Source: Octopus sinensis (taxonomy: Eukaryota). From it: a DNA stretch of 16,433 nucleotides. Position numbers and translations under genes: made by a program. The stretch spans positions 1 to 16,433 of the forward strand of contig NW_021825141.1 in assembly GCF_006345805.1 (NCBI RefSeq), in the 5' to 3' direction. Position 1 is the first letter of the stretch; every line of letters starts with the position of its first letter. Positions 1 to 16,433 of this stretch are shown here, one piece after another. Under the pieces are notes generated by a model. It was given only the letters and a program-made list of their open reading frames with translations. It was not told the origin of the DNA and did no database searches.

Positions 1-157
1 ATTTATGAAATAAACTCCAACCACTTATCCTTTTTTTTATATCGTAATCAACAGCACCCACATTACAGAACCAAACGGGGTGGGGGAAAAAGCCTACGAG
101 GTCCGCCAAAACTGGTAAAAATAACAATCTAATCTCCGTCAAATCACGCTCTACAGT

Positions 158-162
158 TGTGT

Positions 163-221
<59 letters not shown>
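158..221. repeat. (TG)n microsatellite
   Basis: Directly visible TG run with few interruptions. Confidence 0.95.
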
Positions 222-297
222 ACCAGCTGAACACTGGGGTCGATGTAATCGACTTACTCCACCTCCGAAATTGCTGGCCTTGTCTTAAAATTTGAAA
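220..297 (+). mobile_element. SINE 3' fragment
   Basis: GTACCAGCTGAACACTGGGGTCGATGTAATCGACTTA matches the reverse complement of 2244-2280 inside the full SINE at 2179-2408. Confidence 0.75.
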
Positions 298-312
298 TCA
301 TCGTCGTCGTCG

Positions 313-344
<32 letters not shown>

Positions 345-487
345 GTCATCATCATCATTATCATCATCATCATCATCATCATCGTCGTCGTCATCATCAT
401 CATCATCATCGTCGTCGTCGTCGTTATCATCATCATCATCATTATCATTATTATTATTACTATCCTCATCATCGTTATCATCATTAT
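298..487. repeat. (TCA/TCG/TTA)n trinucleotide microsatellite
   Basis: Directly visible; it generates the poly-S, poly-D and poly-M ORFs. Confidence 0.95.
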
Positions 488-676
488 ATACGTACATTTA
501 CATATATTCATACATACACACATATACATGCATGCATGCATACATACATACATACATAAATACATACATGCATACATACATACATATATACATACATACA
601 TACATACATACATACATACATACATACATACATACATACATACATACTAATTTATTTACTTACTTTCTTACTTACA
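488..676. repeat. (TACA)n microsatellite decaying into (TACT)n
   Basis: Directly visible. Confidence 0.95.
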
Positions 677-680
677 CTTG

Positions 681-1010
681 ACATCTGTCGAATGTTGTCT
701 GAGATGGGCAAGAAAAAGTATGTTACCGTCAGAGGTCAGCTGTCCTACTGATGTGAATATCTCTTTGAAAATCAAATAGAAAGAAGATTACGATGGACAA
801 CTGATTCGTAACCTCCAGCTTCTATATCCGGATTACAATGTTACATTTATACCAATAATAATTGGAGCACTTGGTTTTGTAAGTAAATGCCTAACTGTCA
901 GTCAGGATAAGCCTGGGTTTTCTGAAAAAAGAAATCAACCAACTGATTCGCACATGACAAGTACAATTGGTAAGCGGAACAGTAAAACTATGTAAGACTT
1001 TTCTGAGGTT
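681..1010 (+). mobile_element. R4/Dong-like RLE non-LTR retrotransposon 3' fragment, copy 1 (pseudogenised)
   Basis: Manual translation gives EVSCPTDVNISLKIK*KEDYDGQLIRNLQLLYPDYNVTFIPIIIGALGFV...GFSEK/EINQLIRT*QVQLVSGTVKLCKTFLR, the C-terminus of an RLE domain. It is homologous to 2810-3080 and carries stops and frameshifts. Confidence 0.85.
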
Positions 1011-1034
1011 ACATACATATATACATACATAAAT

Positions 1035-1360
1035 AGGAGCACTCCGTCGGTTACGACGACGAAGGTCTCAGCTGATACGATCAACGGAACAGCCTGATCG
1101 TGAAATTAACGTGCAAGTGGTTGAGCAATCCACAGACACGTGTATCCCTAACGTAGTTCTCAGGGAGACTCAACGTGACACAGAGCGAGACAAGGCCGGC
1201 CCTTTGAAATACATGTACTACTCATTTTTGCCAGCTGAGTGGACTGGAGCAACGTGAAATAAAGTGTCTTGCTCAAGGACACAACGCATCGCCGGGAATC
1301 GAACTCACGACCTTACGATCGTGAGCAGAATGCCCTAACCACTAAGCCACGCGTCTTCAC
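1035..1360 (-). mobile_element. Full-length tRNA-derived SINE
   Basis: Minus-strand A box TGGCTTAGTGG (1349-1339) and B box GTTCGATTCCC (1304-1294), followed by TGTGTCCTTGAGCAAGACACTT and a central domain shared with 14891-14940. TACA repeats lie on both sides. Confidence 0.9.
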
Positions 1361-1410
1361 ATACATACATACATACATACATACATACATACATACATAC
1401 ATACATACAT
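1359..1410. repeat. (TACA)n microsatellite
   Basis: Directly visible perfect run. Confidence 0.95.
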
Positions 1411-1548
1411 GCTTAAAGGAGAATCTGGATAAACTGGGATTTTCAGAAAGAGAAATCGACCTGCTAATTCGTACATTACAAGTGCAATTTGTGAGTGGAA
1501 CAGTAAAAATATGCAAGACTTCTCAAGTTCCAAATGTGAATTTTTCTG
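1410..1548 (+). mobile_element. R4/Dong-like RLE retrotransposon extreme 3' end, copy 2
   Basis: CLKENLDKLGFSEREIDLLIRTLQVQFVSGTVKICKT/LKFQM* (TGA 1537-1539) aligns to the ends of copies 1 and 3. About 9 nt after the stop the sequence runs into the microsatellite. Confidence 0.85.
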
Positions 1549-1888
1549 CACACCTACCTACCTACTTACATACATACCTACCTATCTACCTACCTACCTA
1601 CCTACCTACCTGCCTGCCTGCCTTCCTACCTACCTACATACTTACCTACCTACCTACCCACATACCTACCTACCTACCTACCTACCTACCTACTACCTAC
1701 ATACATACACATACATGCACACCTACCTACCTACCTACCTACCTACCTATCTACCTACCCACCTACCTTGATGCCTACCTACCTACCTACCTACTTACCT
1801 ACATACATACATGCATACATACATACATACATACATACATACATACATACATACATACATACATGCATGCATGCATGCACACATACAT
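1549..1888. repeat. (TACC)n grading into (TACA)n/(TGCA)n compound microsatellite
   Basis: Directly visible. Confidence 0.95.
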
Positions 1889-3082
1889 GAAACGGAATTA
1901 AACAGCCAGCAGGCATATTCCAGGGTGACAGTTTATTTGTAATGCTGTTGTACTAGCAGTAAACACTTTGTCAGCCCTGTAAACAAGATGCAAAGGCTAC
2001 ATGTCGGGATATACAGAAAAGAATAAAGTTAATGTTACCCACACAATTTTTTGTTGAAGACCTAAAATTATATTCTTGTAATATGAACAACATCAAGAGA
2101 CAATCAGAACTAGTCACAATATTCTCACAAGATATAGGACTTGTGATAGATACATTACCTCCTACCTAGAAGGATATATCTATTTCTTTATTACCCACAA
2201 GGGGCTAAACATAGAGGGGATAAACAAGGACAGACAAAGGGATTAAGTCGATTCCATCGACCCCAGTGCGTAACTGGTACTTAATTTATCGACCCCGAAA
2301 GGATGAAAGGCAAAGTCGACCTCGGCGGAATTTGATCTCAGAACGTAACGGCAGACGAAATACGGCTACGCATTTCGCCCGGCGTGCTAACGGTTCTGCC
2401 AGCTCGCCGGATATACCATCGCTATTCAGAAACAGGAGATAACTATTAAATACTTGATAATAAGAGATATAAAGATTTCGCCAAGCTTCCACGTTGGGAT
2501 AAAAAAAAAATGTTGGCTCTGCTATACCAGTGTTGAAAATATTACTGACATCATCAGCAGCTGCCTCAAAATATCTACGAGATACTACCTGCCCCTGAGG
2601 TATGATATACTTCCAAAGACTACTTACTATGCTATCCGTAGGAAGGACTGCCCTGATGTATTCATCAAAGGCATGTCAGAACCAGCAGGTATTCACACCT
2701 TTAAAAACAAGGAAGACTGGTGGAACACCCCCAATAAAAACATCAGTTCCGCGCAAACATAACAGACCTGTTTCATGGGACCGGGAACAAAAATAACGCG
2801 CTGTTTTAGAGGTCAGCTGCCCAGCAGATGTGTATGTACAATCAAAGCTTCAGGTAAAAAGAGAACGTTTATGATGAATTAATGCGGAACTTACAGCTCT
2901 TGTACCCTAACTATGAATTCTCATTTGTACCTATTATCATAGGTGCATTAAGTTATGTGCAATCAAATTTGCACAAAAACCTAGAAATATTCGGTTTCAT
3001 GGAAAAAGAGCAAAAGAAACTGACGCGGATTCTCCAAATCCGATCTATTAGTGGCACGTTGAAAGTTTGTAAGATATTCCAG
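1889..3082 (+). mobile_element. R4/Dong-like RLE retrotransposon, copy 3: RT remnant, CCHC knuckle and RLE; internally deleted and SINE-interrupted
   Basis: RT motifs GIFQGDSL (from 1912), FFVEDLKLY and FSQDIG (to about 2142); then EGYTIAIQKQEI, CWLC-x8-D-IISSC (decayed CCHC), LRYD (RH-like), KHNRP, EVSCPAD and VPIIIGALSYV. This domain order is typical of R4-clade elements. Multiple stops and frameshifts. Confidence 0.9.
2179..2408 (-). mobile_element. Full-length tRNA-derived SINE with 7-bp target-site duplication
   Basis: Minus strand starts GGCGAGCTGGCAGAACCG (A box) with a degenerate B box GATCAAATTCC and core GCCTTTCATCCTTTCGGGGTCGATAAATTAAGTACC. GGATATA is duplicated at 2172-2178 and 2409-2415. 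Confidence 0.92.
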
Positions 3083-3085
3083 ATA

Positions 3086-3256
3086 GGTGCAGGAGTGGCT
3101 GTGTGGTAAGTAGCTTGCTTACCAATCACATGGTTCCGGGTTCAGTCCCACTGCGGGACACCTTGGGCAAGGGCAAGTGTCTTCTACTATAGCCTCGGGT
3201 CGACCAAAGCCTTGTGAGTGGATTTGGTAGACGGAAACTAAAAGAAGCCCGTCGTA

Positions 3257-3291
<35 letters not shown>

Positions 3292-3402
3292 ATATATATA
3301 TATATACAATATTATTAGAGACAAAACCACTATTTTGCAAAACAAACAAGGAAAGACTTAATCAATACATAAAATTTTAATAAATAGTCAAAAAAATAGT
3401 CA

Positions 3403-3434
<32 letters not shown>

Positions 3435-3644
3435 ATATGTTTGTGTGTCTGTTTGTCCCCCCAACATCGTTTGACAACCGATGCTGGGGTGCTTTCGTCC
3501 CTGTAAATTAGCGGTTCGGCAAAAGAGACCGATAGAATAAGTACTAGGCTTCCAAAGAATAAGTCCTGGGGTCGATTTGCGCGACTAAAGGCGGTGCTCC
3601 AGTATGGCCGCAGTCAAATGACTGAAACAAGTAAAAGAGTAAAA
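3086..3644 (+). mobile_element. tRNA-derived SINE (CORE-like) with internal (TA)n/(TG)n tract
   Basis: A box TGGCTGTGTGG (3096-3106), B box GGTTCAGTCCC (3139-3149) and CACCTTGGGCAAG core-like motif. The 3' half (about 3445-3644) is repeated in diverged form at 3860-4070. Confidence 0.85.
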
Positions 3645-3645
3645 C

Positions 3646-3739
3646 TGTATGCGTGTATGTATGTATGTATGTATGTATGTATGTATGTATGTATGTATGT
3701 ATGTATGTATGTATGTATGTATATATGTATGTATGTATG

Positions 3740-3773
<34 letters not shown>

Positions 3774-3854
3774 TGTATGTATGTATGTATGTATGTATTT
3801 ATATCTATGTATGTGTGTGTGTGCGCGTGCGTGCGCGTGTGCCTGTGTGTGTGT
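3646..3854. repeat. (TATG)n plus (TG)n microsatellite
   Basis: Directly visible. Confidence 0.95.
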
Positions 3855-3859
3855 TAATC

Positions 3860-4070
3860 TTCGTGTTTGTCCCCACACCAGTGCTGGGCAACCGGTGCTG
3901 GTTTGTTTATGTCCCCGTAACCTACAAGTTCGGCAAAAGGGATATGTTAAAATAAGTAACATACTTAAAGAAAAAAAACATATGTGGTTGGGCTGGATTT
4001 GATCGCTTAAAACTTCTCAAGGCAGTGCTCCAGCATGGACACAGTCCAATGACTGAAACAAAATAGAAAG
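3860..4070 (+). mobile_element. More diverged 3' half of the same SINE family as 3086-3644
   Basis: Shares GTTTGTCCCC, GTTCGGCAAAAG, AAGGCRGTGCTCCAG and AATGACTGAAACAA with 3450-3632. Confidence 0.85.
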
Positions 4071-4360
4071 CAAAACATAAAGCTCTTATGAATTAATGTT
4101 TCATCTCTTTATCGAACTGTCCATTATCGCCGTTATCTTTTCACCATTGTCGTCATCTCTTTCATCAATCAGCCCAGTTTTATTTCCTTTTCTTTCTTTG
4201 TCTTTTATTTCATTCATCTTTCTTGATTGAAAGTTATTACGTCTTAATAATTTAAAGCAAATGTCATCTACTAACTTTTTTCCATTTCTTTAAATTGAAA
4301 AGAATTTTTTAATATTTTTATATAATAATAATTAAATAATTATATAAAATAATTATATAA

Positions 4361-4392
4361 AGGAGTGGCTGTGTGGTAAGAATCTTGCTTCC
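4361..4392 (+). mobile_element. Isolated SINE head (A box only)
   Basis: AGGAGTGGCTGTGTGGTAAGAATCTTGCTT is nearly identical to 3091-3120; homology then stops abruptly. Confidence 0.8.
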
Positions 4393-5304
4393 GGTTTACC
4401 GTGACTCATTCGTTTTGTTGGATTTGTGTGACATAGACTTCTTTTTTTTTTTTTGGCTGTGCGACGTTTTTCCTCTTGTGTGATGGTGGGGCGTCGAATG
4501 AGGAGTTGCAAGGGTTTGAGTTATTCTGTGTCAAGCGTTGAAAGCTACCCGTCCTCGGTCTATGTATCGTCTGAGGAAGGAATGGTAGAGTGTCTCAAGA
4601 AAATAGACAAAGCTTTAGAAAATAGAAGTTATGCTGCAGCGACGGAAGAAAAGTACGAAGACCTAAAGCTGGAAGATGTAAGCAAGTATTAAGGAATGCT
4701 TGAAGAGGAGGAGAACGAAGTGAAGGTGTCCCACCGCCGAAGAAGTCTTAAAGAAAACAGGGGAAAGAACGGTAGTTTATAGGACGTATTCGGTGGCAGC
4801 TGGAAAATTTGAGAACATGTCTACGGTATAGATAGAAAAGGCGTTAAGACCAGTCTGGCAAGGTATTTCGTACCTTGCCAGAGGTAATAAATTTGGAACG
4901 ATAGAGGTGCAGTTAGAAAAGGTAGTTACCACCAGGCTGCACTCGGCAACATCGTTGGAAACGAATGAGGTAGTTCTTCTACTCGTATATCTTGGGAGAC
5001 GTGCTTCCAGGGTTAGGATGGAAGAAGTACCCCCAGAGGTGGATGTAGCCTGACTGGTGGCTGTTATACTACTTGGAATGAAGAAGGTGGTGGTCCTACA
5101 GGCCACCAGAACACCTCATAGGAACTGGAAGGAACAAACCCTTGACATAGTGATGCAAATCGCGAAGGACATCGAAAAAATGGTCCAAAGTATCACAGTG
5201 GAAGAAACGATTTTAAAGGTCAGAGTGGAAGGTAGGATTCCACAACGTTATAAATGTGGCCTGAAAGGCTACATTAGAATGAAGTGTCCTCCACCACTAG
5301 AAAA
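4393..5304 (+). mobile_element. Decayed 5' region and gag-like ORF1 of an L1/Tx1-type LINE
   Basis: A broken frame reads SYAAA (about 4627), YLARGNKFGTIEV, YLGRRASRVRMEEVPPEV and VRVEGRIPQ-RYKCGLKGYIRMKCP. The last motif (5246-5287) is a CX2CX4HX4C knuckle after two single-base reversions (CGT>TGT, TAC>CAC). No ORF2 follows. Clade assignment is by motif recall. Confidence 0.7.
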
Positions 5305-5372
5305 GGCCAGCAATTTTGCGGGGCGGGGTTCAGTTGCTATCATCGTTCCCAGTATTTGACGGGTAGTTTGTT
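5305..5372 (-). mobile_element. Degenerate SINE 3' fragment
   Basis: Reverse complement ...ACTGGGAACGATG...AAAATTGCTGGCC resembles 233-279. Confidence 0.5.
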
Positions 5373-5378
5373 AAGTGC

Positions 5379-5422
5379 AAGAAGAAGAAGAAGAAGAAGA
5401 AGAAGAAGAAGAAGAAGAAGAA
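5379..5422. repeat. (AAG)n microsatellite
   Basis: Directly visible. Confidence 0.95.
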
Positions 5423-5787
5423 AAGGTTTCCTAAAGAGTTAAAAACTAGTCTACTGTTTTTTTTTACATATGGCTATCACAAAAATCTATTCATGAAAAC
5501 AAATTACACGTCATTTTTTGTAGATACACCTGTACTTTCATCAATAATCAATGAAATGATATTGATCCTTAGTATCTTTCATCAATGATATGACGAAGAG
5601 TAAGTGTTCCTTTTGTTCTTGTATATTTAATTCCCTTAGCATTTTTGTTTTTCTTTTTGAATCTGAGGCATTAAAAAAAGTTTTAAAAACCTGGATTATG
5701 CTTTGGTAGCGAATCGAATAAACTATGTTCTAGCTCAAATATACACTTCTTCAGTTCATTGGAAGCCGGAACCACAACATACATGTA

Positions 5788-6388
5788 CGAGGGTGGACTG
5801 AAAAGTTCATAGGTTGACTATGAAGGCGTGATGCTAGAGCTGTGAAATCTTGTATGTATTAACTTCAACTCTTCTTATTAATAGGTGCATTGTTTTATTT
5901 CAGGTAAACTGACGTCTGATTGTCCAAAGAAGACTTCAAAAGTAACTAGTAACGACTGACTTTGAACTGGTTGAAAACCCACCTTATTCTCTTGATTTGG
6001 TCCCATCTGATTATCATCTGGCTGTGAGAAAAACAGCATCATGATGCAATTCACTCTGCCAGAAATCTGGAAATGAGATACAGTATTGCTTGGCATTCGC
6101 GCCGGAAGCTCCAAAACGAACAGATTGTGAACACACAGAACAACCGTCGGTTTGCCTTGTCATTTGGCTGGGAATAAGTATCCCAGTGGTGATTGCGTCA
6201 CATCTGCTGTTGATGACTTTTTGACCAACAGGACGAAGCTTCTTCCCCAATAGGATCCAAGTACTGCAATACCGGTTGAAAGAAACATGCGTGAGCCACA
6301 AGGAGGACTATGTTGAAAAATAAACCTCATTTGGTCACATCCCATGCGAGTGTCTTGGTTCGCTCATGAACTTTTCAGTCGACCCTAG
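5788..6388 (+). mobile_element. Non-autonomous mariner element with TIRs and transposase C-terminal remnant
   Basis: 23-bp TIRs CGAGGGTGGACTGAAAAGTTCAT (5788-5810) and ATGAACTTTTCAGTCGACCCTAG (6366-6388), 21/23 match, with TA on the left. PPYSLDLVPSDYHL (5979-6020) is the mariner YSPDLAPSD motif, and the frame ends DYVEK* (TAA 6321-6323). Confidence 0.9.
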
Positions 6389-6592
6389 AACCCATTTCTT
6401 CTGTCCATTGTGTCACAACCACAACGCGTATGTATTTCATAAAAAGAGTAGGAAACTCTAAAAATATCAGTTGTTTTAGATGTCAGGATATTTAGTGTAG
6501 TTGTAAAAGTCTCTCACTATCAAAATGTTTCTTAAGCAACAAAATTCCCAGATAACTAACTAGTCTATGACCAAACAAAATAACTTTGCAAG

Positions 6593-7016
6593 CTTCACGT
6601 TAAGTTGGAGATCAAGATTACCGTTTGGTATTAAAACTGATTCTGTCGCTGTTAATTAATGTTAATGAGCCCACTGGCTATTTACGACATCAGTGTCTGA
6701 ATAGACACTGAGATTCTATGTGTCATTCACGAAGAGATTCACGAAGAGATTCGGCTGTTATCACGCTGCTGGACATCTGACACTGAGGAACCCATAGTAG
6801 GGTGAAATCTTGTGATCTAGTAGTTCTGGTAGTGATAGAAGACGATTCTCGTCTGTCAAGGATATAATTTCGAGTGCTTTTATGCACCATGGGTCCTTAT
6901 AATAGTTTCTCTCGAGGTAAATAACACAGTAATTCTGTGTTCTAACACAACCTCCACGTTAAGTTCGCAGTCAAGATTACCTTTTTGGTATTAATGCTGC
7001 TTATATGACTGTCAAA
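6593..7016 (+). repeat. Diverged direct repeat with ~359-bp period containing a hammerhead-like core
   Basis: CACGTTAAGTT..TCAAGATTACC.TTTGGTATTAA occurs at about 6593-6655 and 6952-7016. CTGAGGA-ACCC-ATAGTA-GGGT-GAAA lies at 6783-6807. Confidence 0.65.
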
Positions 7017-7565
7017 CGTAGAATCACCAGTTTCTGCAGATTATGGGTTTATGCAGATTATTTCTTTTTTTGTATGAACTTTCTCCTTAATCATATCCGT
7101 ATCGTCCCTTTTCTCTGTTAGCTTAATCTGTAGTTTACGTTAGATGGCAAATGAAATAAAATTATAAAAAGTATTAGCAAAAACACAATCGTAAAGCGAA
7201 TAATGACACGAGCTATAACTCGCGGAAACAGCGATTAATCATCGTCTGAAATTACCTGGCATCAAACGAAATGAGCCCTTATAAAGCGCATTCAAACATT
7301 TAGGCATAAAAAATTTGCCGTTATAATGAATTATTATGAGTCAAATTTCAACCAAAAGGTGAACCAAACATAAAAAAAAGAAATTTTTATTAGCCATGCA
7401 ACAAGTATTTTAGCAACATTTACTAAATTTCATGAGTTTTACCAAATTTTCTATACAGAGCCAAATTTGATAAAAAAAAACCCCAAAAAACACAAAGAAA
7501 AGAAAAAAGATCAGCTTCGATAGCCCTGATCTCCACACATTATTTTCTATTAATTTAAATCATGC

Positions 7566-7710
7566 GGCTTTGGTCGACTCGAACGAAATTATAGCAATAT
7601 AACTTCCACCCGATTTCATAGAGGTACTACAGCTATAAAGTAGGCAGAGGAAACATACTCGGAAATCATGTTGTTGCACAACGAACTTCGTGACCACACA
7701 ACCAAACCTA
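7566..7710 (-). mobile_element. Highly degenerate SINE 5' part (family of 3086-3644)
   Basis: Reverse complement contains TGGTTGTGTGGT...ACATGATTTCCGAGT and TCGAGTCGACCAAAGCC, resembling 3096-3141 and 3195-3211. Confidence 0.55.
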
Positions 7711-7992
7711 TAGAATACTAAATATTTCAGCTGTTTAACAAGATTAAAACCTCTACATAGTGGCTCTGTCTGCTAAAAAGGAAATCCAAATTTCAGGCTT
7801 TGTAAATATAGGAAAAAGAATCATCATCATCATCATCATTGTTTTTTTTTGTATTTGTTTCCTCTAATTCTTTATTTGGGGAGAAGAGGTTTGAACTGTT
7901 CTACTTCTTTCGAAGTTGATAATAACAGAATAAATTATTTATGCGCGCGCACACATATATCTGATGTATGTATGTATTACGTACCTATATCA

Positions 7993-8030
<38 letters not shown>

Positions 8031-8113
8031 CTATCTATCTATCTATCTATTATCTATCTATCCTCTATCTATATCTATCTAACTATCTATCTCTCTCTCT
8101 CTCTCTCTCTAAA

Positions 8114-8156
<43 letters not shown>

Positions 8157-8215
8157 ATAAATATATATATATATGTATATGTATATTATAAATATATATA
8201 TATTATATATATAAG

Positions 8216-8248
<33 letters not shown>

Positions 8249-8253
8249 TACAC

Positions 8254-8303
<50 letters not shown>

Positions 8304-8325
8304 CATACACATACATATATATATG
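7993..8325. repeat. Compound (TATC)n-(TC)n-(TA)n microsatellite
   Basis: Directly visible. Confidence 0.95.
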
Positions 8326-8423
8326 TAATAAACGAGTTTATCAGTAATCGAATTTTAATTAAGCAGAAAATGAAAAACAATTCTTGATCAGTAAACGAAT
8401 TGACTACCAAATACAAAACTTTA

Positions 8424-8548
8424 TCACTTCTAACAGCTGTTTCTGCTACCAGTGTCCCTCAGCGCTGCCAAAAAAAATTCTTAGAATAATATTCGTCATA
8501 TTCTACAGCACATCCGATCTAGTACATGGAACTTCATCAGCGTGAAGA
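8424..8548 (-). ncRNA. Type I hammerhead-like motif with ~90-nt extended stem II (Penelope-like fragment ~8326-8555)
   Basis: Minus strand has CUGAUGA (8540-8534), then GAA (8443-8441), palindromic ACAGCUGU (8440-8433), U, AGAAG. Stem I is imperfect. Confidence 0.55.
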
Positions 8549-8566
8549 AAAATACATAGAATAAAA

Positions 8567-8726
<160 letters not shown>

Positions 8727-9547
8727 CAGGGTGCGGTTAATAAACAGTCCTTTAAATTGCGCAAAAATGACACTGACATCTCATTTTAACAGATTTACCA
8801 AAATTACATAAAAATATCTTGAAATACTAAAGAGTAAATTCATTTTCAACCACGGCCACCTAGACGACCTCGGAATCTCCTGCAACTCTTCTGGGTGGTC
8901 TCCTTGTTTAAGTTGGTGAATGTTGCCATAATCCTTGCTATCAGTTCATCTTTGTTCAACTGCACCCCACACATAATAATCAAGGGGGTTGCAGCCTGGG
9001 GAGTTAGGTGCCCAGATGTTAGTGGTGATGAGGTCGCAGAAATTATCTGGCAGCCATGTATAGGTTCTTCTGCTTGTGTGGCATGGTGCAGAGTCCTGTT
9101 GCCAGACATAGGTTCTTGAAGCAGCCACCCTCTTGATCGAGGGCAACATTACCTCCTCTAGGCACTTGATGTATGTCTCTGTGTTGAGTCTGAAGCTGTG
9201 TGGAGAGAGGAATGGAGGCATAACATCGCCATCACTAGTGAACACTACAAACACCATGATGTTGACTGAATGTTTTGATTTTCATCACTTTTGGTACATG
9301 TTTTGGGGACACGGTTGTTCTGTGTGTTCACCATCTGTTCGTATTGGAGCTTCCGGCGCGAAGGCCAAGCAGTACAGTATCTCGTTTCCAGATTTCTGGC
9401 AGAGTGAATTGCATCATAGTGCTGTTTTTCTCACAGACAGTGCCCAACTGACCCTATTATACTGTGTAGTCGACAAATTCAAAAATAAACAATGCGCATG
9501 CGTGAAATTAAGGATATCTAATTGCGACAATTTACCATCGCACCCTG
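8727..9547 (-). mobile_element. Internally deleted Tc1/mariner DD37D (maT) transposon
   Basis: Terminal inverted CAGGGTGCG at 8727-8735 and 9539-9547, with TA on the left. ORF 8946-9257 has WQQD-x37-D (WQQDSAPCHTS...WAPNSPGCNPLDYYVWG; I count 37 residues). Putative start MMQFTLPEIWK at 9417. Confidence 0.9.
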
Positions 9548-9559
9548 AATATACATATA

Positions 9560-10235
9560 TATGAAAAAATATAAAAAGTGGACAAGAACGCAAAACATCC
9601 AGACAGGTGATCCAAAAAAGTGACAACAAAACATCCAAACGGACGATACAAAGAAAACAAGGATGGGTAATTCGGAGTTTTCCTTCCTCAGTCGAGTTCC
9701 AGATTATCTTTGCAATTTCGGTTGGTTATACTCGAGATTGCTCCAATCTAGCCAGCCCCAAGGAAAAACTAAGCTAAGAGCATTAGATTCCTCGGAAGAA
9801 AGCAGCGAATGTATGCGAAGACATGGACGGAAAAAAAAGAGAAATGTTACACAAATACAGATGCAAATAACAGGATATAACAACAGGTATCGACTAAGGA
9901 CGAATTAAATTAAGCTGGCGTGTGTGGAAGGAAAGCCTTACGGCAGGGACATAAGATTTGACAGGCACAGGGAGGAATATAGATGTTGCACGGATGGTAG
10001 TCGAACCAAGAAAGGTCAGGCTTGACCGAACACCGTCGCGTGGGGAGAGGAGAGAGGCAGAGACAGAGGGATAGAAGAATTAAGGAGGGGCGAGGAAAAA
10101 TGAAAGGGACAGAGTGAATTGAAAGCGGAGGGAAAGTGAGCATGAAGAAAAGGCCAGGAAATGTGAGAGAGGGGTAACAAAAGAACGAAGAGTGGAATGA
10201 ACGAAGTGTGAAAATACGCACATCATACGTACATA
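9560..10235. mobile_element. Unclassified interspersed repeat between TA tracts, possibly Penelope-like
   Basis: GC-richer block bounded by TA-rich runs with a degenerate minus-strand CUGAGGA-A-GGA-AAAC-UCC-GAAU (9692-9671) and an inverted copy of its right end. No recognisable protein. Confidence 0.35.
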
Positions 10236-10310
10236 TATATGTATGTTATATGTATATGTATATATATATACATACTATATTATATATATATTATATATAT
10301 ATATTATATA

Positions 10311-10381
<71 letters not shown>

Positions 10382-10436
10382 ATATACATATACATATATA
10401 CATACATTATATATATATGTATGTATATATGTATAG

Positions 10437-10486
<50 letters not shown>

Positions 10487-10580
10487 TATACACATATACA
10501 TATATACATACATATATATGTACGTATGCATGTGCGTATTTTCACACTTCGTTCATTCCACTATTCGTTCTTTCGTTTCC

Positions 10581-10587
<7 letters not shown>
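10165..10587. repeat. ~105-bp inverted repeat enclosing a (TA)-rich tract
   Basis: GAACGAAGAGTGGAATGAACGAAGTGTGAAAATACGCACAT(G)CATACGTACATATAT in 10165-10270 is the near-perfect reverse complement of about 10480-10587. Confidence 0.9.
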
Positions 10588-10639
<52 letters not shown>

Positions 10640-10668
10640 CATAGCCGTGTGTGTGTGTGTGTCTGTGT
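10588..10668. repeat. (TA)n plus (TG)n microsatellite
   Basis: Directly visible. Confidence 0.9.
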
Positions 10669-11087
10669 ACAGATGCTACGCAAATCTCTTATAATCTAAA
10701 GAGATAATAATTCACTCTTGACCTTCATCATAATATCTAAGTTTTCTATTTAATCCAGTCAAGCGAAAACAGAAAAAAAAGAAAGAAAAGAAAAAAAGAA
10801 ATCCGTATATTCTGTGAAAAATTACTGCTCAAGTGTCTAGCTTATGCGATAGCACTTGTTTTGTGTTGTTTTGTTTTAACCTCTTTACTTTATAGACCTT
10901 GTATTTGATTGTTTTGCGTTCTTTTTTGGACAGATCGATAACCATGAGCTGATTGATCTCAGTTTGATATGCTACAGTACAGCTCGTATCCGTTGGAATA
11001 TCCAGGCTTAGACAATATCGACTGAAAGAAATGTCTCTTTTCGATTATACAATATATTGGTAGCATTAACGATTCTTAATCGTGATA

Positions 11088-11180
11088 TTTCTTCTTCTTC
11101 TTCTTCTTCTTCTTCTTCTTCTTCTTCTTCTTCTTCTTCTTCTTCTTCTTCTTCTTCTTCTTCTTCTTCTTCTTCTTCTT

Positions 11181-11210
<30 letters not shown>
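11088..11210. repeat. (TTC)n microsatellite, about 40 perfect units
   Basis: Directly visible. Confidence 0.97.
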
Positions 11211-11211
<1 letters not shown>

Positions 11212-11276
11212 AAGCTACAACACAACAACGTTATCCATTTTAAGTTCTTTATTATCTAAAGTACCTATTTAACGTT

Positions 11277-11307
<31 letters not shown>

Positions 11308-11464
11308 CATACACATAAAAATATCGTGTACATTAAAACGCATTAAGAGGCTTCCAAATAGGAAAGCCTTGTGCTAGAAAGAGCAGTAGAAAACTCAAAC
11401 CACTAATTAGGGATAAATTCTCAAAAGGAATGAAAATTAAAAACGTTTACCATCTCATTTAGTT

Positions 11465-11531
11465 CCTAGACCATGGTTTCTGACTAATTTTAGTAAAAAG
11501 ATATTTACTGAGATCAGTCTTCATCAGTAGG
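11465..11531 (-). ncRNA. Type I hammerhead ribozyme with intact core (within Penelope-like fragment ~11310-11745)
   Basis: Minus strand reads CCUA-CUGAUGA-A-GACUGAU...AUUAGUC-A-GAA-ACCAUGGU-C/UAGG. Stem I is CCUA/UAGG, stem II has at least 7 bp, stem III is palindromic, and the cleavage triplet is GUC. Confidence 0.85.
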
Positions 11532-11610
11532 TAGCCTTTAGATTTTAAATATACACACAACTAGATCCGCATGTAAACTCGCTGCCTGTATATTCTAACT
11601 TTTCAAATCT

Positions 11611-11743
11611 ACTGCGCAGATGCAGTTTATTTCCGGCGACAGAGAGGATGCCGGTAACATTTCGAACAAATTTATCAAAAAATATTTAAACATAATAAAT
11701 ATTATCAGGGTAATATTATACATATAAACTGCATCTGCGCAGT
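11611..11743. repeat. Perfect 20-bp inverted repeat with 93-bp spacer
   Basis: ACTGCGCAGATGCAGTTTAT (11611-11630) and ATAAACTGCATCTGCGCAGT (11724-11743). Confidence 0.9.
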
Positions 11744-11913
11744 TATGTACATATATGTATGTATATATGCATATATTTATATATTATTCATATTATCATC
11801 AGTGGCCCAGCAACAAAATTTGCTAAGGGGGTGCAAACCCAGTTCCTAATTTTTTCATGAAAAATGTGGATTTTTCCAATATTAACATTAAAACATAATA
11901 ATTTTTATTATTA

Positions 11914-12168
11914 TGAGGGTCGGCTGAAATGTTCATAATCTGAGCAAGACGCTCTCAATGGAATATGACCAAATGAAGTTCATTTTCTAACATAGTTCCT
12001 CTTACTGTCCACACACTTCCATTAGTAGTTGCAGTGCTTGGGTCGCACTGGTGAAGAAGCTTTTCTGTTGATCAAAATGGTCATCAACAACAGATAAGAT
12101 GTTCTCATCATAGTGATACTGGTGCTCAGCTGAGTATTTTTCTATGTTGAGAAACATAGCTGATAGCC
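11914..12168 (-). mobile_element. Mariner 3'-end fragment, same family as 5788-6388
   Basis: TA-TGAGGGTCGGCTGAAATGTTCAT matches the TIR. The reverse complement aligns to 6160-6388 and reads FLNIEKYSAEHQYHYDENILSVVDDHFDQQ. Confidence 0.8.
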
Positions 12169-12494
12169 AATAAACACAATATTTTTTGCATTAATGCATA
12201 GTATATATAATAATGTGAGGTATATTTTGCATATTAAAATGTTTAATTTTGGAAATATATCAAGCAGAGCTAAAATAAGCAGTAAAAATACAAATTGCAA
12301 GTATTTCAAAATGGGGACACTAACAAAAAAAAAGGAAGAAAATAGTTGTGCTTGTGTTCCAAAGGTTCAATGAGAAGGCTCAGGAGAAGGATAAAAAGAT
12401 GGGGTAGAGGGAAGGAAGTTAGACGGAGAGAAAAGAATGAAAAGCGAAAAGGTAAACTGGGGATCTGAAATGAGTACTAGGTAGGAGATTAGCT

Positions 12495-12630
12495 CCTGTG
12501 CTGGTGGCACGTAAAAACAGCACCCACTACACTCCAAGAGTTGTTGGTGTTAGGAAGGGTATCCAGCTGTAGAAACACTGCCAGAAGTTGGAGACTGGTG
12601 CAGCCTCCTGGCTTCCCAGTTGAACCATTC
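12495..12630 (+). mobile_element. SINE/RTE-type interspersed repeat fragment
   Basis: GTTGGTGTTAGGAAGGGTATCCAGCTGTAGAAAC is a motif I recall from SINE and RTE 5' regions. There is no in-window homologue to confirm it. Confidence 0.5.
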
Positions 12631-12886
12631 AACTTTCCAGGAAGATTTCGACGAATTTTCCCGGAAGTTAGAAAATCATCGGAACTTTCCAGGAAGATTT
12701 CGACGAATTTTCCCGAAGGTTAGAAAATCATCGGAAATTTCCAGGTAGATTTCGACAAATTTCCCCGGAAGTTAGATAATCCTCGGAACTTTCCATGGAT
12801 TTTCCCGGAAGTTAGAAAATTTTCGGAACTTTCCAGGAAGTTTCAACGAATTTTCCCGGAAGTTAGAAAATCCTCGGAACTTTACA
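12631..12886. repeat. 52-bp minisatellite, about 5 units
   Basis: Unit AACTTTCCAGGAAGATTTCGACGAATTTTCCCGGAAGTTAGAAAATCATCGG starts at 12631, 12683, 12735, 12787 (40-bp deleted unit) and 12827, with a partial unit at 12878. Confidence 0.95.
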
Positions 12887-12919
12887 GTTTCAATAGCAGT
12901 CTCTTTTTATATTTCTTTC

Positions 12920-13090
12920 AATTTAGATAGGTAGTTGAACAGTTGATGGAACTCTAAATGTCAGATTGTTACAATAGAGTATTGTAGCCCATGATTTCAA
13001 ACGTAGTATATTTGCAAGCTTAGAGTATATAAATGTTCGTGCGTTAAAACTCTCTCCAGTGCCGAAGTTTGGAACATGTCCCTCCACAGT
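12920..13090 (-). mobile_element. CR1-group LINE ORF2 C-terminal fragment
   Basis: VEGHVPNFG...NNLTFRVP/QLFNYL resembles the C-terminal EG.VPN...P.LFN.LP motif of CR1-group ORF2. Confidence 0.5.
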
Positions 13091-13266
13091 TCTATATTTA
13101 AGAGATGAGGAATTATTTACATTATTTTCATTCGATGGATATTTGTCCTCATCTTGTTTGTTGTTAACACAACGTTTCGGCTGATATACTCTCCAGCCTT
13201 CATCAGGTGTCTTGGGGAAATTTCGAACCTGTGTTCTCATTCCTAAGGTATTTTTCGATGTTCCTT
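13091..13266 (-). mobile_element. Penelope-like terminal-repeat fragment inserted in LINE sequence
   Basis: Non-coding block between LINE coding remnants that contains a minimal hammerhead. Confidence 0.7.
13166..13211 (-). ncRNA. Minimal type I hammerhead ribozyme
   Basis: Minus strand reads GACAC-CUGAUGA-A-GGCUG-(10 nt)-CAGCC-GAA-ACGU-U/GUGUU. Stem I has 5 bp (one G-U), stem II has 5 bp, and stem III is the palindrome ACGU. Confidence 0.85.
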
Positions 13267-14135
13267 TTACGCAAGCTTAGACAAGCCCGCGCCCATTTGG
13301 GTGACCAAGTGCTGAACCTGTTCCAGGTGCTGAATGTCTTTCTGGAGATATGGGTTTGAGGTATGGATGTAATATTCGAGGATGGATCGAACAAGAGTGA
13401 TATATACATACCAAAAGGCGTCCATTGAAAGGTTGGCAAAGGATCGGTGGATGAGGAAAAGATTCCTTCTGGCTTTGTTCGCTGCCTCGATACCCTGCCG
13501 TGGTTGTTTGAAAGTAGTATCGATCATTATGCTGAGATCCTTTTCTTCAATGACCATCTTAAGGTGTTGATGTTTGTGGCCAATAGTCAAGGGAGAGTTT
13601 GGAGATGAACCTATTGGCAAATGGCTGCATTTTGATGCGTTCAAGTTCAGATTCCATTCTTCCGCCCAATTCCAAGCTCGGTTCAGCGACGATTGGAGTA
13701 TGTTGTATTGATTCCTATGTGAGACAAGTTTGACGTCGTCTGCAAATAGGAGAACTCTTCCATCAAAAAAATCTGGCAGGTCGTTGATATAGAGAAGGAA
13801 AAGTATTGGCCCCAGCACCGACCCCTGGGGAATGCCGCTGCATGCATTCGTCTCCGCGGAGAGATCTCCATTTATCTGCACCCAAAAGGTTCTGTAGCTC
13901 AGGAAGGAAGAAATCCACAAAGTCACCAATGGATGAATCTTGAATGCTCGAAGTTTGCGCAAGAGAAGTCAGTGATTAACGGAGTCAAACGCCTTTGCGA
14001 AGTCCAAAAATGCCACGCACACCAAGTATTTTTCATCCATGGTTCTTGTAATCCATTCTTCAAGAAAGAGAAGATTTGTTAGACAAGATCTTTAGGGTAG
14101 AAATCCATACGGCGAGTCGGATATTTCTTTGTACC
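13267..14135 (-). pseudogene. CR1-group LINE reverse transcriptase (pseudogenised)
   Basis: YGFLP*RSCLTNLL, FLDFAKAFDSVNH*, SGIPQGSVLGPILFLLYINDLP, LFADDVKL and WNLNLNASKC, with in-frame stops. Confidence 0.93.
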
Positions 14136-14144
14136 ATATACAGA

Positions 14145-14500
14145 TAATTGTATAATGCTTTGGTTGGAAATAGCTGTGGGAATGACCTGAACATTGTGAA
14201 TAAAAACAAAGTCGAGTGTGTTATTTTCTCCTAATTGGACGGGTAATGATTTGTTGTATGGGAAAGTCTTTTGTTGTATTGAGGAAAGGGTTCATATCCC
14301 TCCACTTCAGTTGCTTAGTTCCAGGCTGGATATAATCCTCGGACCAGCTAAGATTAGTAAAATTAAAGACTCCTGTTAAATGCATATTAGCCTGTGTGCT
14401 GGCCTCAGCTAGGGTTAGACTTATGAGCAAAAACAAAAAGCACCTCTGAAGTGATCTTCGTGGTTAACCGCGTCAGGATGACGGTAGGTAATGCTTTTAA
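14145..14500 (-). pseudogene. LINE APE-type endonuclease fragment
   Basis: YRHPD (YRPP-like), GVFNF (GDFN-like), QQIITRPIR/NTLDFVF (PTR..NTLDL-like) and SNQ (SDH-like) occur in the expected order. It abuts the RT with the linker missing. Confidence 0.7.
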
Positions 14501-14694
14501 TATCATTTCCTTTTTATATAAATTAGTCTGAAATTGTCGAATACATTTCTTTGCAAATTAGGTAATTTTGGGCTTGGTCTGCAATCATTTATAGTTAAAT
14601 GTTTCCTTTCAAAATCTTTTTTTTTTTATTAAACTGGACTAGTATTTCGAATGAGCAATAAGTATCAAAGCATTTAACAATGAGCATTAAATAA

Positions 14695-14940
14695 AGGGTA
14701 AAGACCCCCTTCGGTCATGAATGACCATGGGATTGCACCTAGAAAGTTACCCTCCTAGACACAAGTCCGGGCAAGGTTGTTTATGGAAGACCAGCAGTCG
14801 CCCATGCATACCAGCCTCCCCTCTCCACGCCACCAGTGTTATCCAAGGGAAAGACATAGGTCGATACAGCTTGGCACCAGTGACGTCGCAACTCATTTCT
14901 ACAGCTGAGTGAACTGGAGCAACGTGAAATAAAGTGCCTT
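14695..14940 (-). mobile_element. 5'-truncated SINE
   Basis: 14891-14940 is nearly identical to 1220-1270; the remaining tail differs and the tRNA head is absent. Confidence 0.8.
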
Positions 14941-15637
14941 ATCAAAGATAAAAATATATCATTTTGTTCCCTTATCAAACTTTGGACCTAACAACCTAAA
15001 TGAGAAAACCGATAAGACTGAAAGAATTTTTAAAGGGCACTTATTTTTAGGCTGAGGTCAAACAGTCGAATCCATTCAACCATGTCGTCAGTCTTTAGCA
15101 ACATCAACTACAAAGAACTTGAGAGAGGTGACAGACTGAAAGAGGACAAGAACCATCACACATTTTCAGCATTGCAAGATTTTGGAGTTATTTTTGTCAG
15201 AATAGTGCTGTCTTCAAGAATCCAAGTAATGCTATGTATTGAAGAGTAGCCGTAGATGCTGGTCATGTTGTCGTTCTTGTTGTTTGCTGCTACTGTTGTT
15301 GTTGTTGTCACATACTTTTTATTTTGACGTTATTTTGCTTCAGAAGTTGGTTAGTCATAAATTCCCTTGGGAATTTTAAGCCCAGCTTCATCACTTTTAC
15401 TTATTTATTTTTGTTCTTTGTTTTTGCTTTGAAACGAAATCTAGCTTCAAGCATCTTATACAGATAATTTTTTAGACACTATTTTCTGAAACTGGTAAAA
15501 TTATGTAGAGGGTGCAAATTTTGATCTTGCACCTCCTGAAAATTCTAAGGGGTGCAGGTGCGCCGCTGCTGCAACCCTGTTCCCGGGCCCTTGATTATTA
15601 TATGATCGAACGCCACGCATCCTTTTCGAAGTAAGTT

Positions 15638-15803
<166 letters not shown>

Positions 15804-16433
15804 AACGTTTCTTACTACTTTAAGCTTAAGGATATAGAATACTCGCGGGAATAAATAAGATGCAAACGATTTTAGTGAATAAAACAGAATATAAGTAATA
15901 TGTAATATATAATAAATGTCGTCAGGAAAATTGAAAGTGAAGAAAAGCCTAAATAAAAACAAAGCCTACATTTATACACTACATTTATACACTAGCCAAT
16001 ATATGAACAATATACAATACATCAAAAATAGAAATGTAAATTAAGTTCTTGTTATAAAAGAAGCAATACGTTTAAATCCGTGAGGAATACTAGTTGGTGT
16101 GCTTATACCATATATTTATTATATTAACATCGATGTCGTCTGATGAAGAAACACTACAGATGATGGTAACTTCGCAATTTAACAAATCGAATATATTTGG
16201 TTCGCTAAAAGATATATTTATTATGAATGAAGAAAAAAAATTTCAAATAGATAAATGAATGAACAAATATATGAATAAAATAAATATTTAAAAAATAAAA
16301 TAAAATCTCATGCAAAACCCCCGCCCGGATCTTGTCAAATACGGAACAAAAATGCTGGCCTTTGATCTTTTCACTTGAAATACATAAGTTATATTACGAT
16401 CGAACTTCACTGAGGAAAGTAACAAAAGCGTTA

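Follow-up and report, generated by a model that had tools for sequence, protein, structure and literature searches.

Three RLE retrotransposon fragments in an Octopus sinensis contig and their probable (TACA)n target

R2 and R4 retrotransposons insert by TPRT, which starts from an endonuclease nick. Target change in RLE retrotransposons is an open question, and one that bears on gene insertion use. According to excerpts of PMC7998251, elements of the R4/Dong clade insert into rDNA or microsatellites, with (TAA)n as the target in most insects, molluscs, and cnidarians, and carry a diverged N-terminal SANT/Myb-like domain. Excerpts of further papers list the repeat targets of Waldo (ACAY), Mino (AC), Kibi (TC), Koshi (TTC), and Dong (TAA) (PMC3812793), and describe an HDV-like ribozyme of Dong that cleaves at the 5′ terminus of the element (PMC3774820). 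In octopus, Dong-R4 accounts for 51 families and 92.7 Mb in an excerpt of the PMC13282606 supplement. Excerpts of PMC8967140 and PMC13282606 call these elements abundant in octopus and state no target; the word ‘target’ is absent from the main text and supplement of PMC13282606, and excerpts of PMC5035012 and PMC13580325 contain nothing on a TACA target. No RLE element with a TACA or TACT target was found in the literature searched, and Repbase/Dfam and unsearched papers may record one. Microsatellite targeting is itself known, and octopus libraries probably contain the families described below under unnamed Dong-R4 entries, so that the surprise is limited.

The stretch of DNA analysed here, referred to as the window, consists of 16,433 nucleotides (positions 1 to 16,433) of contig NW_021825141.1 of Octopus sinensis. 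Tandem-repeat and translation scans reveal three co-oriented RLE-LINE fragments on the TACA strand (Table 1), in agreement with a preliminary description made from the letters alone and further borne out by their subfamily matches. We consider it highly probable that these copies are dead members of an RLE LINE branch next to Dong whose protein recognises existing (TACA)n and inserts by TPRT. The three copies alone are little proof in a repeat-rich window; the proof consists of genome-wide counts.

Table 1. Features of the three-copy region, with identities of the copies to script-built subfamily models in brackets
Positions	Strand	Feature	Remark
499..647	+	(TACA)n tract 5′ of copy 1	followed by decayed TACT-like repeat, 648-680
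681..1010	+	Copy 1, of subfamily D (91%), a 5′-truncated RLE C-terminus	
1010..1035	+	Short (TACA)n tract 3′ of copy 1	
1036..1358	-	Dispersed SINE-like repeat	flanked by two TACA tracts
1359..1409	+	Perfect (ACAT)13 tract	immediately 5′ of copy 2
1410..1548	+	Copy 2, 5′-truncated C-terminus, subfamily B (96%)	stop at 1537-1539
1549..1888	+	Mixed (TACC)n/(TACA)n tract	from copy 2 to copy 3
1890..2177	+	First part of copy 3, subfamily A, a fragment of the RT core	followed by ∼720 nt deletion
2178..2408	.	Dispersed repeat inserted later into copy 3	∼230 nt
2409..3081	+	Second part of copy 3, subfamily A (88%), with CCHC zinc knuckle and RLE region	
3087..3306	+	SINE-like repeat and (TA)n	in place of the 3′ UTR of copy 3

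The preliminary description had each copy start right after a TACA-type tract. This holds for copies 2 and 3, the alignment of copy 2 beginning at 1406 through overlap with TACA, but copy 1 starts ∼33 nt from the perfect tract, with the decayed TACT-like repeat in between. Its initial 9 nt match subfamily D and are followed by a short deletion. The copies belong to different subfamilies and have different start points, and therefore do not derive from local duplication, in line with the preliminary argument against it. All three have lost the 3′ end: the final 110 nt of copy 1, including the stop codon and 3′ UTR, 95 nt of the subfamily B 3′ end (3′ UTR) in copy 2, and the final 184 nt of copy 3. 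None of the three 3′ junctions is therefore an intact insertion end, and the ∼9 nt that separate the stop codon of copy 2 from the following repeat, correctly reported before, are the product of a deletion. Copy 3 had been described as a single piece. It is instead broken by the internal deletion and the insertion, part of which matches window 220-260 in reverse orientation, and its 3′ end is replaced by a SINE-like repeat; its second part carries stops and frameshifts. Copy 3 matches residues 582-664 of a relative, P0001, and Pfam recognises none of the RLE fragments of the window.

Other repeats surround the three copies. The element at 1036-1358, which we take to be a SINE by its look, yielded no tRNA by ARAGORN; in loci L001-L300 it has sense TACA by one end in 5/19 distinct flanks and TGTA in 0, and may also prefer TACA in a fixed orientation. 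An RT fragment of another LINE, presumably CR1-like, lies at 13270-13968 on the minus strand (PF00078, E 2e-16), and a stretch that resembles decayed coding sequence (4432-5359), with no Pfam match and what may be a zinc-knuckle, is perhaps ORF 1 of another LINE. Decayed pieces at 8846-9450, 6014-6390, and 11916-12095, presumably of Tc1/mariner transposase and ends, include a match of 6018-6147 to 9440-9311 at 93%. The window further contains a 52-bp minisatellite of ∼5 copies (12631-12887) and a ∼420-nt imperfect palindrome of (AT)n-rich sequence (10166-10588).

A search of the 2.7 Gb genome with the C-terminus of copy 3 gave 19,876 first-look candidates, 150 of which were scored. The lineage is high-copy and comprises at least four subfamilies, 66–85% alike in DNA (B and D 85%, other pairs ∼66–68%): A, B, and D, to which copies 3, 2, and 1 belong, and C, met during searches with each copy. 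Median copy identity to the script-built models is 83.5% for A, 93.8% for B, 89.1% for C, and 87.6% for D. L276:2296-2560 and the upstream flank of L241 hold at least one more subfamily, whose 3′ UTR differs and likewise ends in decayed TACA. Copies have fixed 3′ ends and variable 5′ truncation, and no intact ORF of the lineage is present among the fetched copies of the genome, the best of which carry several stops. The tiny 3′ UTR proposed earlier has to be abandoned: natural 3′ ends show family UTRs of 100–200 nt, ∼170–190 nt in A and ∼100–105 nt in B and D, followed by CATA repeats, and the window copies simply lost theirs. Another abundant RLE family, which we take to be HERO-like, was met at L033:6439-7468 and L301-L304 (1181 first-look candidates); its copy in L033 starts directly after a TACA tract.

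For the junction counts, copy ends in 253 loci were called by blastn against four trimmed models, which replaced nhmmer profiles that had absorbed flanking TACA, and an end was scored when a perfect TACA run of at least 10 nt lay within 40 nt of it. The window's own copies and near-identical duplicates were left out, as were chains aligned over <80 nt, ends flanked by <60 nt, and starts within 40 nt of a model edge. The strand-specific association put forward in the preliminary description is upheld, with TACA enriched over background and orientation biased. Truncated 5′ ends are preceded by sense TACA in 108 of 226 cases and by antisense TACA in 2. Intact 3′ ends are followed by TACA in 79/166 (83 when the last 4 nt are included; antisense 3), rising to 127/166 at a 6-nt criterion. 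In 200 kb taken at preset coordinates the background is 28 and 33 of 4980 windows, and 0.6–1.0% overall when the blind sample described below is included. The 5′ signal decays with distance, from 108/226 at 0–40 nt to 70/225, 49/225, 23/224, and 12/213 at 40, 80, 200, and 500 nt. Each subfamily contributes (A 28/65, B 13/27, C 55/98, D 12/36), and the proportion is similar without the loci from the copy-2 and E queries (78/163) or with one junction taken per locus (65/131); pieces consisting only of E, the end piece of subfamily C introduced below, were counted apart (10/23). Other repeats are unenriched upstream of the same 226 ends (TAA 0, TA 6, CA 7, TACT 0), and (TAA)n is found at 0/166 3′ junctions. 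Copies in these loci lie on the anchor strand in 362 cases vs 12 on the opposite strand, a count that is not deduplicated and to which the anchors themselves contribute ∼250 of the 362.

The junctions also carry finer detail. CATAC stands after 49/108 exact 3′ ends, and each of the four subfamilies has it as its most frequent start. The first bases of the element extend the repeat by a mean of 2.3 nt (0.4 expected) at 52 5′ junctions that abut TACA directly, a difference that end-setting by the aligner may inflate. Independent-looking copies are truncated at the identical base at ACAT-like spots of the element (L055 and L069; L147, L150, and copy 1), which fits microhomology-guided truncation. 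TACA tracts upstream and downstream do not differ in length (34 vs 25 nt, p=0.33, 43 copies). Candidate target-site duplications number 9 of 119, and some copies hint at duplications of 13 nt or more. An apparent common 5′ start was discarded because it marked a SINE edge in the query; copies truly begin ∼270 nt upstream.

A bias in the sampling is relevant to these counts, as the main junction set was ranked by similarity and favours better-kept copies. A blind sample of 600 kb holds 11 family fragments, mostly older (73–93%), with TACA at 2/8 5′ ends and 1/4 intact 3′ ends and antisense TACA at 0, against a background of 153/14,934 windows (p=0.003 for 5′ ends). The effect is thus real without the ranking bias and smaller in decayed copies. 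The same 600 kb contains 39 TACA/TGTA tracts of at least 20 nt; most TACA tracts therefore exist without an element. This last comparison weighs against the best surviving alternative, namely that the enzyme prefers a short motif (∼ACATAC) and that the long tracts grew later by slippage of the duplicated motif, so that the element would create TACA microsatellites more than it seeks them. Such a scenario draws on the short or mixed state of many junction tracts, on the ∼half of truncated junctions that lack a 10-nt TACA run, and on subfamily C, which brings its own tract. Nested insertions that landed in a pre-existing tract, together with long-ORF members in metagenome contigs that already have long perfect tracts on either side, argue against it, and we regard it as unlikely.

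Subfamily C provides the nested insertions. Its 3′ end consists of ∼70 nt of 3′ UTR, a TACA tract, and a 110–120 nt end piece, E. A reading of E as a separate SINE was rejected, as E follows C in 20/46 copies but A, B, or D in 3/86, and resembles the subfamily B 3′ end (72%). Sequence between the C body and E was listed by script in five cases. In three, a later copy has inserted into the internal TACA of C (a full-length C in L262, a B in L065, and a truncated C in L037), and the other two are a local tandem duplication and a doubled E. The uninterrupted host form has TACA at the nested insertion point. Empty-site evidence consists of only these three reconstructed sites, within the 3′ UTR of subfamily C itself. 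Beside a subfamily-C copy, L035:4426-5349 holds a 308-aa ORF without introns that has the look of a seven-helix receptor.

The reverse relation, in which TACA is no more than a 3′ tail that the element makes and the 5′ tracts are tails of earlier copies or the result of deletion between tracts, was the other possibility left by the preliminary description. TACA does stand at 3′ ends in a fixed register, 39 of the 226 truncated copies lie directly behind another copy, and the window copies show deletions into tracts. A tail cannot explain the truncated 5′ ends, however, and TACA is for that reason the likely target: sense TACA persists at 84 of 187 such ends once those with a family copy immediately upstream are set aside, and the TACA-preceded ends represent 104 distinct truncation points. 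At full-length 5′ ends of subfamily C (internal query), TACA is found in 19/25 and antisense TACA in 0, and the sequence beyond these 5′ tracts varies between loci; five full-length C copies with both ends visible have TACA or decayed TACA/CA on either side. A tail origin is already largely refuted and in our estimate very improbable. Random insertion followed by passive survival in microsatellite-rich, gene-poor DNA is scarcely credible, as a genome so rich in microsatellites that 1% of 40-nt windows hold TACA, and blind fragments that often lack the repeat, are set against the strand bias, the steep decay with distance, the unenriched but commoner (TA)n and (TAA)n, and the same element–repeat pairing in other, unrelated marine organisms.

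A Dong family of the same genome served as a control for the assignment of (TACA)n as the target. This young family encodes 1235 aa, is ∼32% identical to P0001, a relative of the TACA lineage, and has TAA at 23/23 3′ ends and TACA at 0/23 at either end. Its intact copies (L118-L140) include full-length ones most of which share one decayed GAT/AAT upstream repeat, a 5′ flank carried along from the donor locus. Since 5′ repeats can travel with the element, the full-length count of subfamily C is weaker evidence than the truncated count.

Relatives of the lineage include full-length proteins of 1080–1200 aa and one Argonauta protein, which match at 39–55%. A metagenome scan returned 33 loci, the 15 closest of which (L305-L319) have (TACA)n in 2, (TACT)n in 7, and no repeat in 6, where contigs end in or near the element; (TAA)n runs are found in 6 of the 18 more distant loci. 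L309 and L310, with a long ORF and long perfect tracts, have (TACA)n on either side. (TACT)n lies on either side of L307, on the 5′ side of L305 and L306, and at the 3′ side of L311, L313, L315, and L318, the 3′ UTR of L315 being near-identical to that of L311. A distant RLE element at L326:4208-4472 runs at its 3′ end into what we take, from a motif, to be the end of an 18S rRNA gene and ITS1; it is possibly 18S-targeting.

Phylogenetic placement was obtained from two quick IQ-TREE searches, one of the RT (55 rows, without the CR1-like RT of the window, which had no match at threshold) and one of 480 C-terminal columns (45 rows, without P0225 and short loci of <200 aligned residues). TACA and TACT members fall on one branch apart from every TAA member (SH-aLRT 100, length 0.99), and the four subfamilies of the O. 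sinensis genome form one clade (99). The TACA and TACT labels require two changes each on the tree, of which the starred branches force only one for TACA. In the RT tree the lineage groups with Dong-like proteins (the TAA family, insect, shrimp, fish), apart from rows of the O. sinensis genome that we take to be HERO-like and that lie far outside; the comparison there is to Dong-like and HERO-like proteins, and sister and nested placement are both compatible with it. The Dong-like group is matched profile against profile (probability 100, 28% identity) across 1100 columns, the N-terminal helical domain among them. Support is strong for the unity of the TACA/TACT branch, which appears to lie next to the (TAA)n Dong elements. 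The single R4-clade family envisaged earlier thus keeps its closeness to R4/Dong but has to be widened to at least four subfamilies within a branch that also uses (TACT)n. The chances are about even that this is an undescribed, deep, and widespread RLE branch beside Dong, with a shift from a trinucleotide to TAC(A/T) targets, at least one TACA/TACT switch, and one subfamily that ships its own target.

The build of the element, as read from the relatives, appears to be a single ORF without an N-terminal zinc finger. PF00078 marks the RT in 20/20 relatives, and the FVDD motif is present in the subfamily A and C models. Motifs that we take from established knowledge to be a CCHC knuckle and a PD-(D/E)xK-type endonuclease are kept in the four subfamily models and in L307, L309, and L310. 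The first 350 aa show no C2H2-like pattern in 7 relatives or in the TAA Dong family. Residues 14-80 of P0001 align with the N-terminus of the TAA Dong family and are predicted to form a three-helix N-terminal domain (pLDDT ∼79–88) in the AlphaFold model of P0001 (mean pLDDT 82), a model whose best structural matches are R2 TPRT structures; Pfam, run with the domain as part of longer sequences, gave no Myb match. No Rfam ribozyme match was obtained in 6 loci, and a crude pattern for an HDV-like ribozyme occurred in 1/9 sequences, no better than in shuffles, and also missed the TAA control.

These features suggest how insertion into existing (TACA)n may proceed. The endonuclease would nick the TGTA strand, the small N-terminal three-helix domain perhaps helping to read the repeat, and new DNA would be primed just before CATAC, with an uncertainty of 1–2 nt. 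Reverse transcription would usually end early, and the upstream TACA end could then anneal to the cDNA by 1–5 nt of microhomology and start the second strand. TACA would be left on both sides of each insertion, allowing later copies of any subfamily to stack head-to-tail, as in the window, and slippage or deletion between tracts would afterwards trim the 3′ UTRs. Subfamily C, with a TACA tract in its own 3′ UTR, likely seeds targets and so spreads new landing sites. TACA targeting helps account for the LINE fragments stacked in TACA tracts of the O. sinensis genome. The question of target change is directly testable in this branch, as relatives differ by one base (TACA vs TACT), a TAA sister group is at hand, and long ORFs exist in metagenome contigs. 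If the proposed targeting is correct, the long-ORF TACA and TACT members, ∼45–50% like the same relative, constitute a natural pair for finding target-setting RLE residues.

Among known systems, R2 is the best solved-structure match by sequence and fold, the profile match extending to the C-terminus, and serves as the model for TPRT. R2 differs in its 28S rDNA target and N-terminal zinc fingers, and identity in the fold alignments is 15–18%. Togen (NeSL-related, (TG)n) and some HERO elements also combine an RLE with microsatellite targets in excerpts of PMC4640811, but belong to other clades and use other repeats. Waldo (WaldoAg1/2, WaldoFs1; R1 clade) has an ACAY target that includes (ACAT)n, according to an excerpt of PMC3812793. 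It is APE-type, with an unrelated endonuclease, and a shared repeat would amount to convergence by an RLE enzyme, a second and independent route to the ACAT repeat. Dong itself (R4 clade; Bombyx Dong, DongAg, DongBg, ostracod Dong) shares the single ORF with RT and RLE, the lack of an N-terminal zinc finger, and a microsatellite target, and differs in that its target is (TAA)n, whereas the lineage described here forms a separate long branch with (TACA)n or (TACT)n. The observation is real and well supported, and the TACA lineage is best seen as of the R4/Dong kind with a different target, not as a new kind of system.
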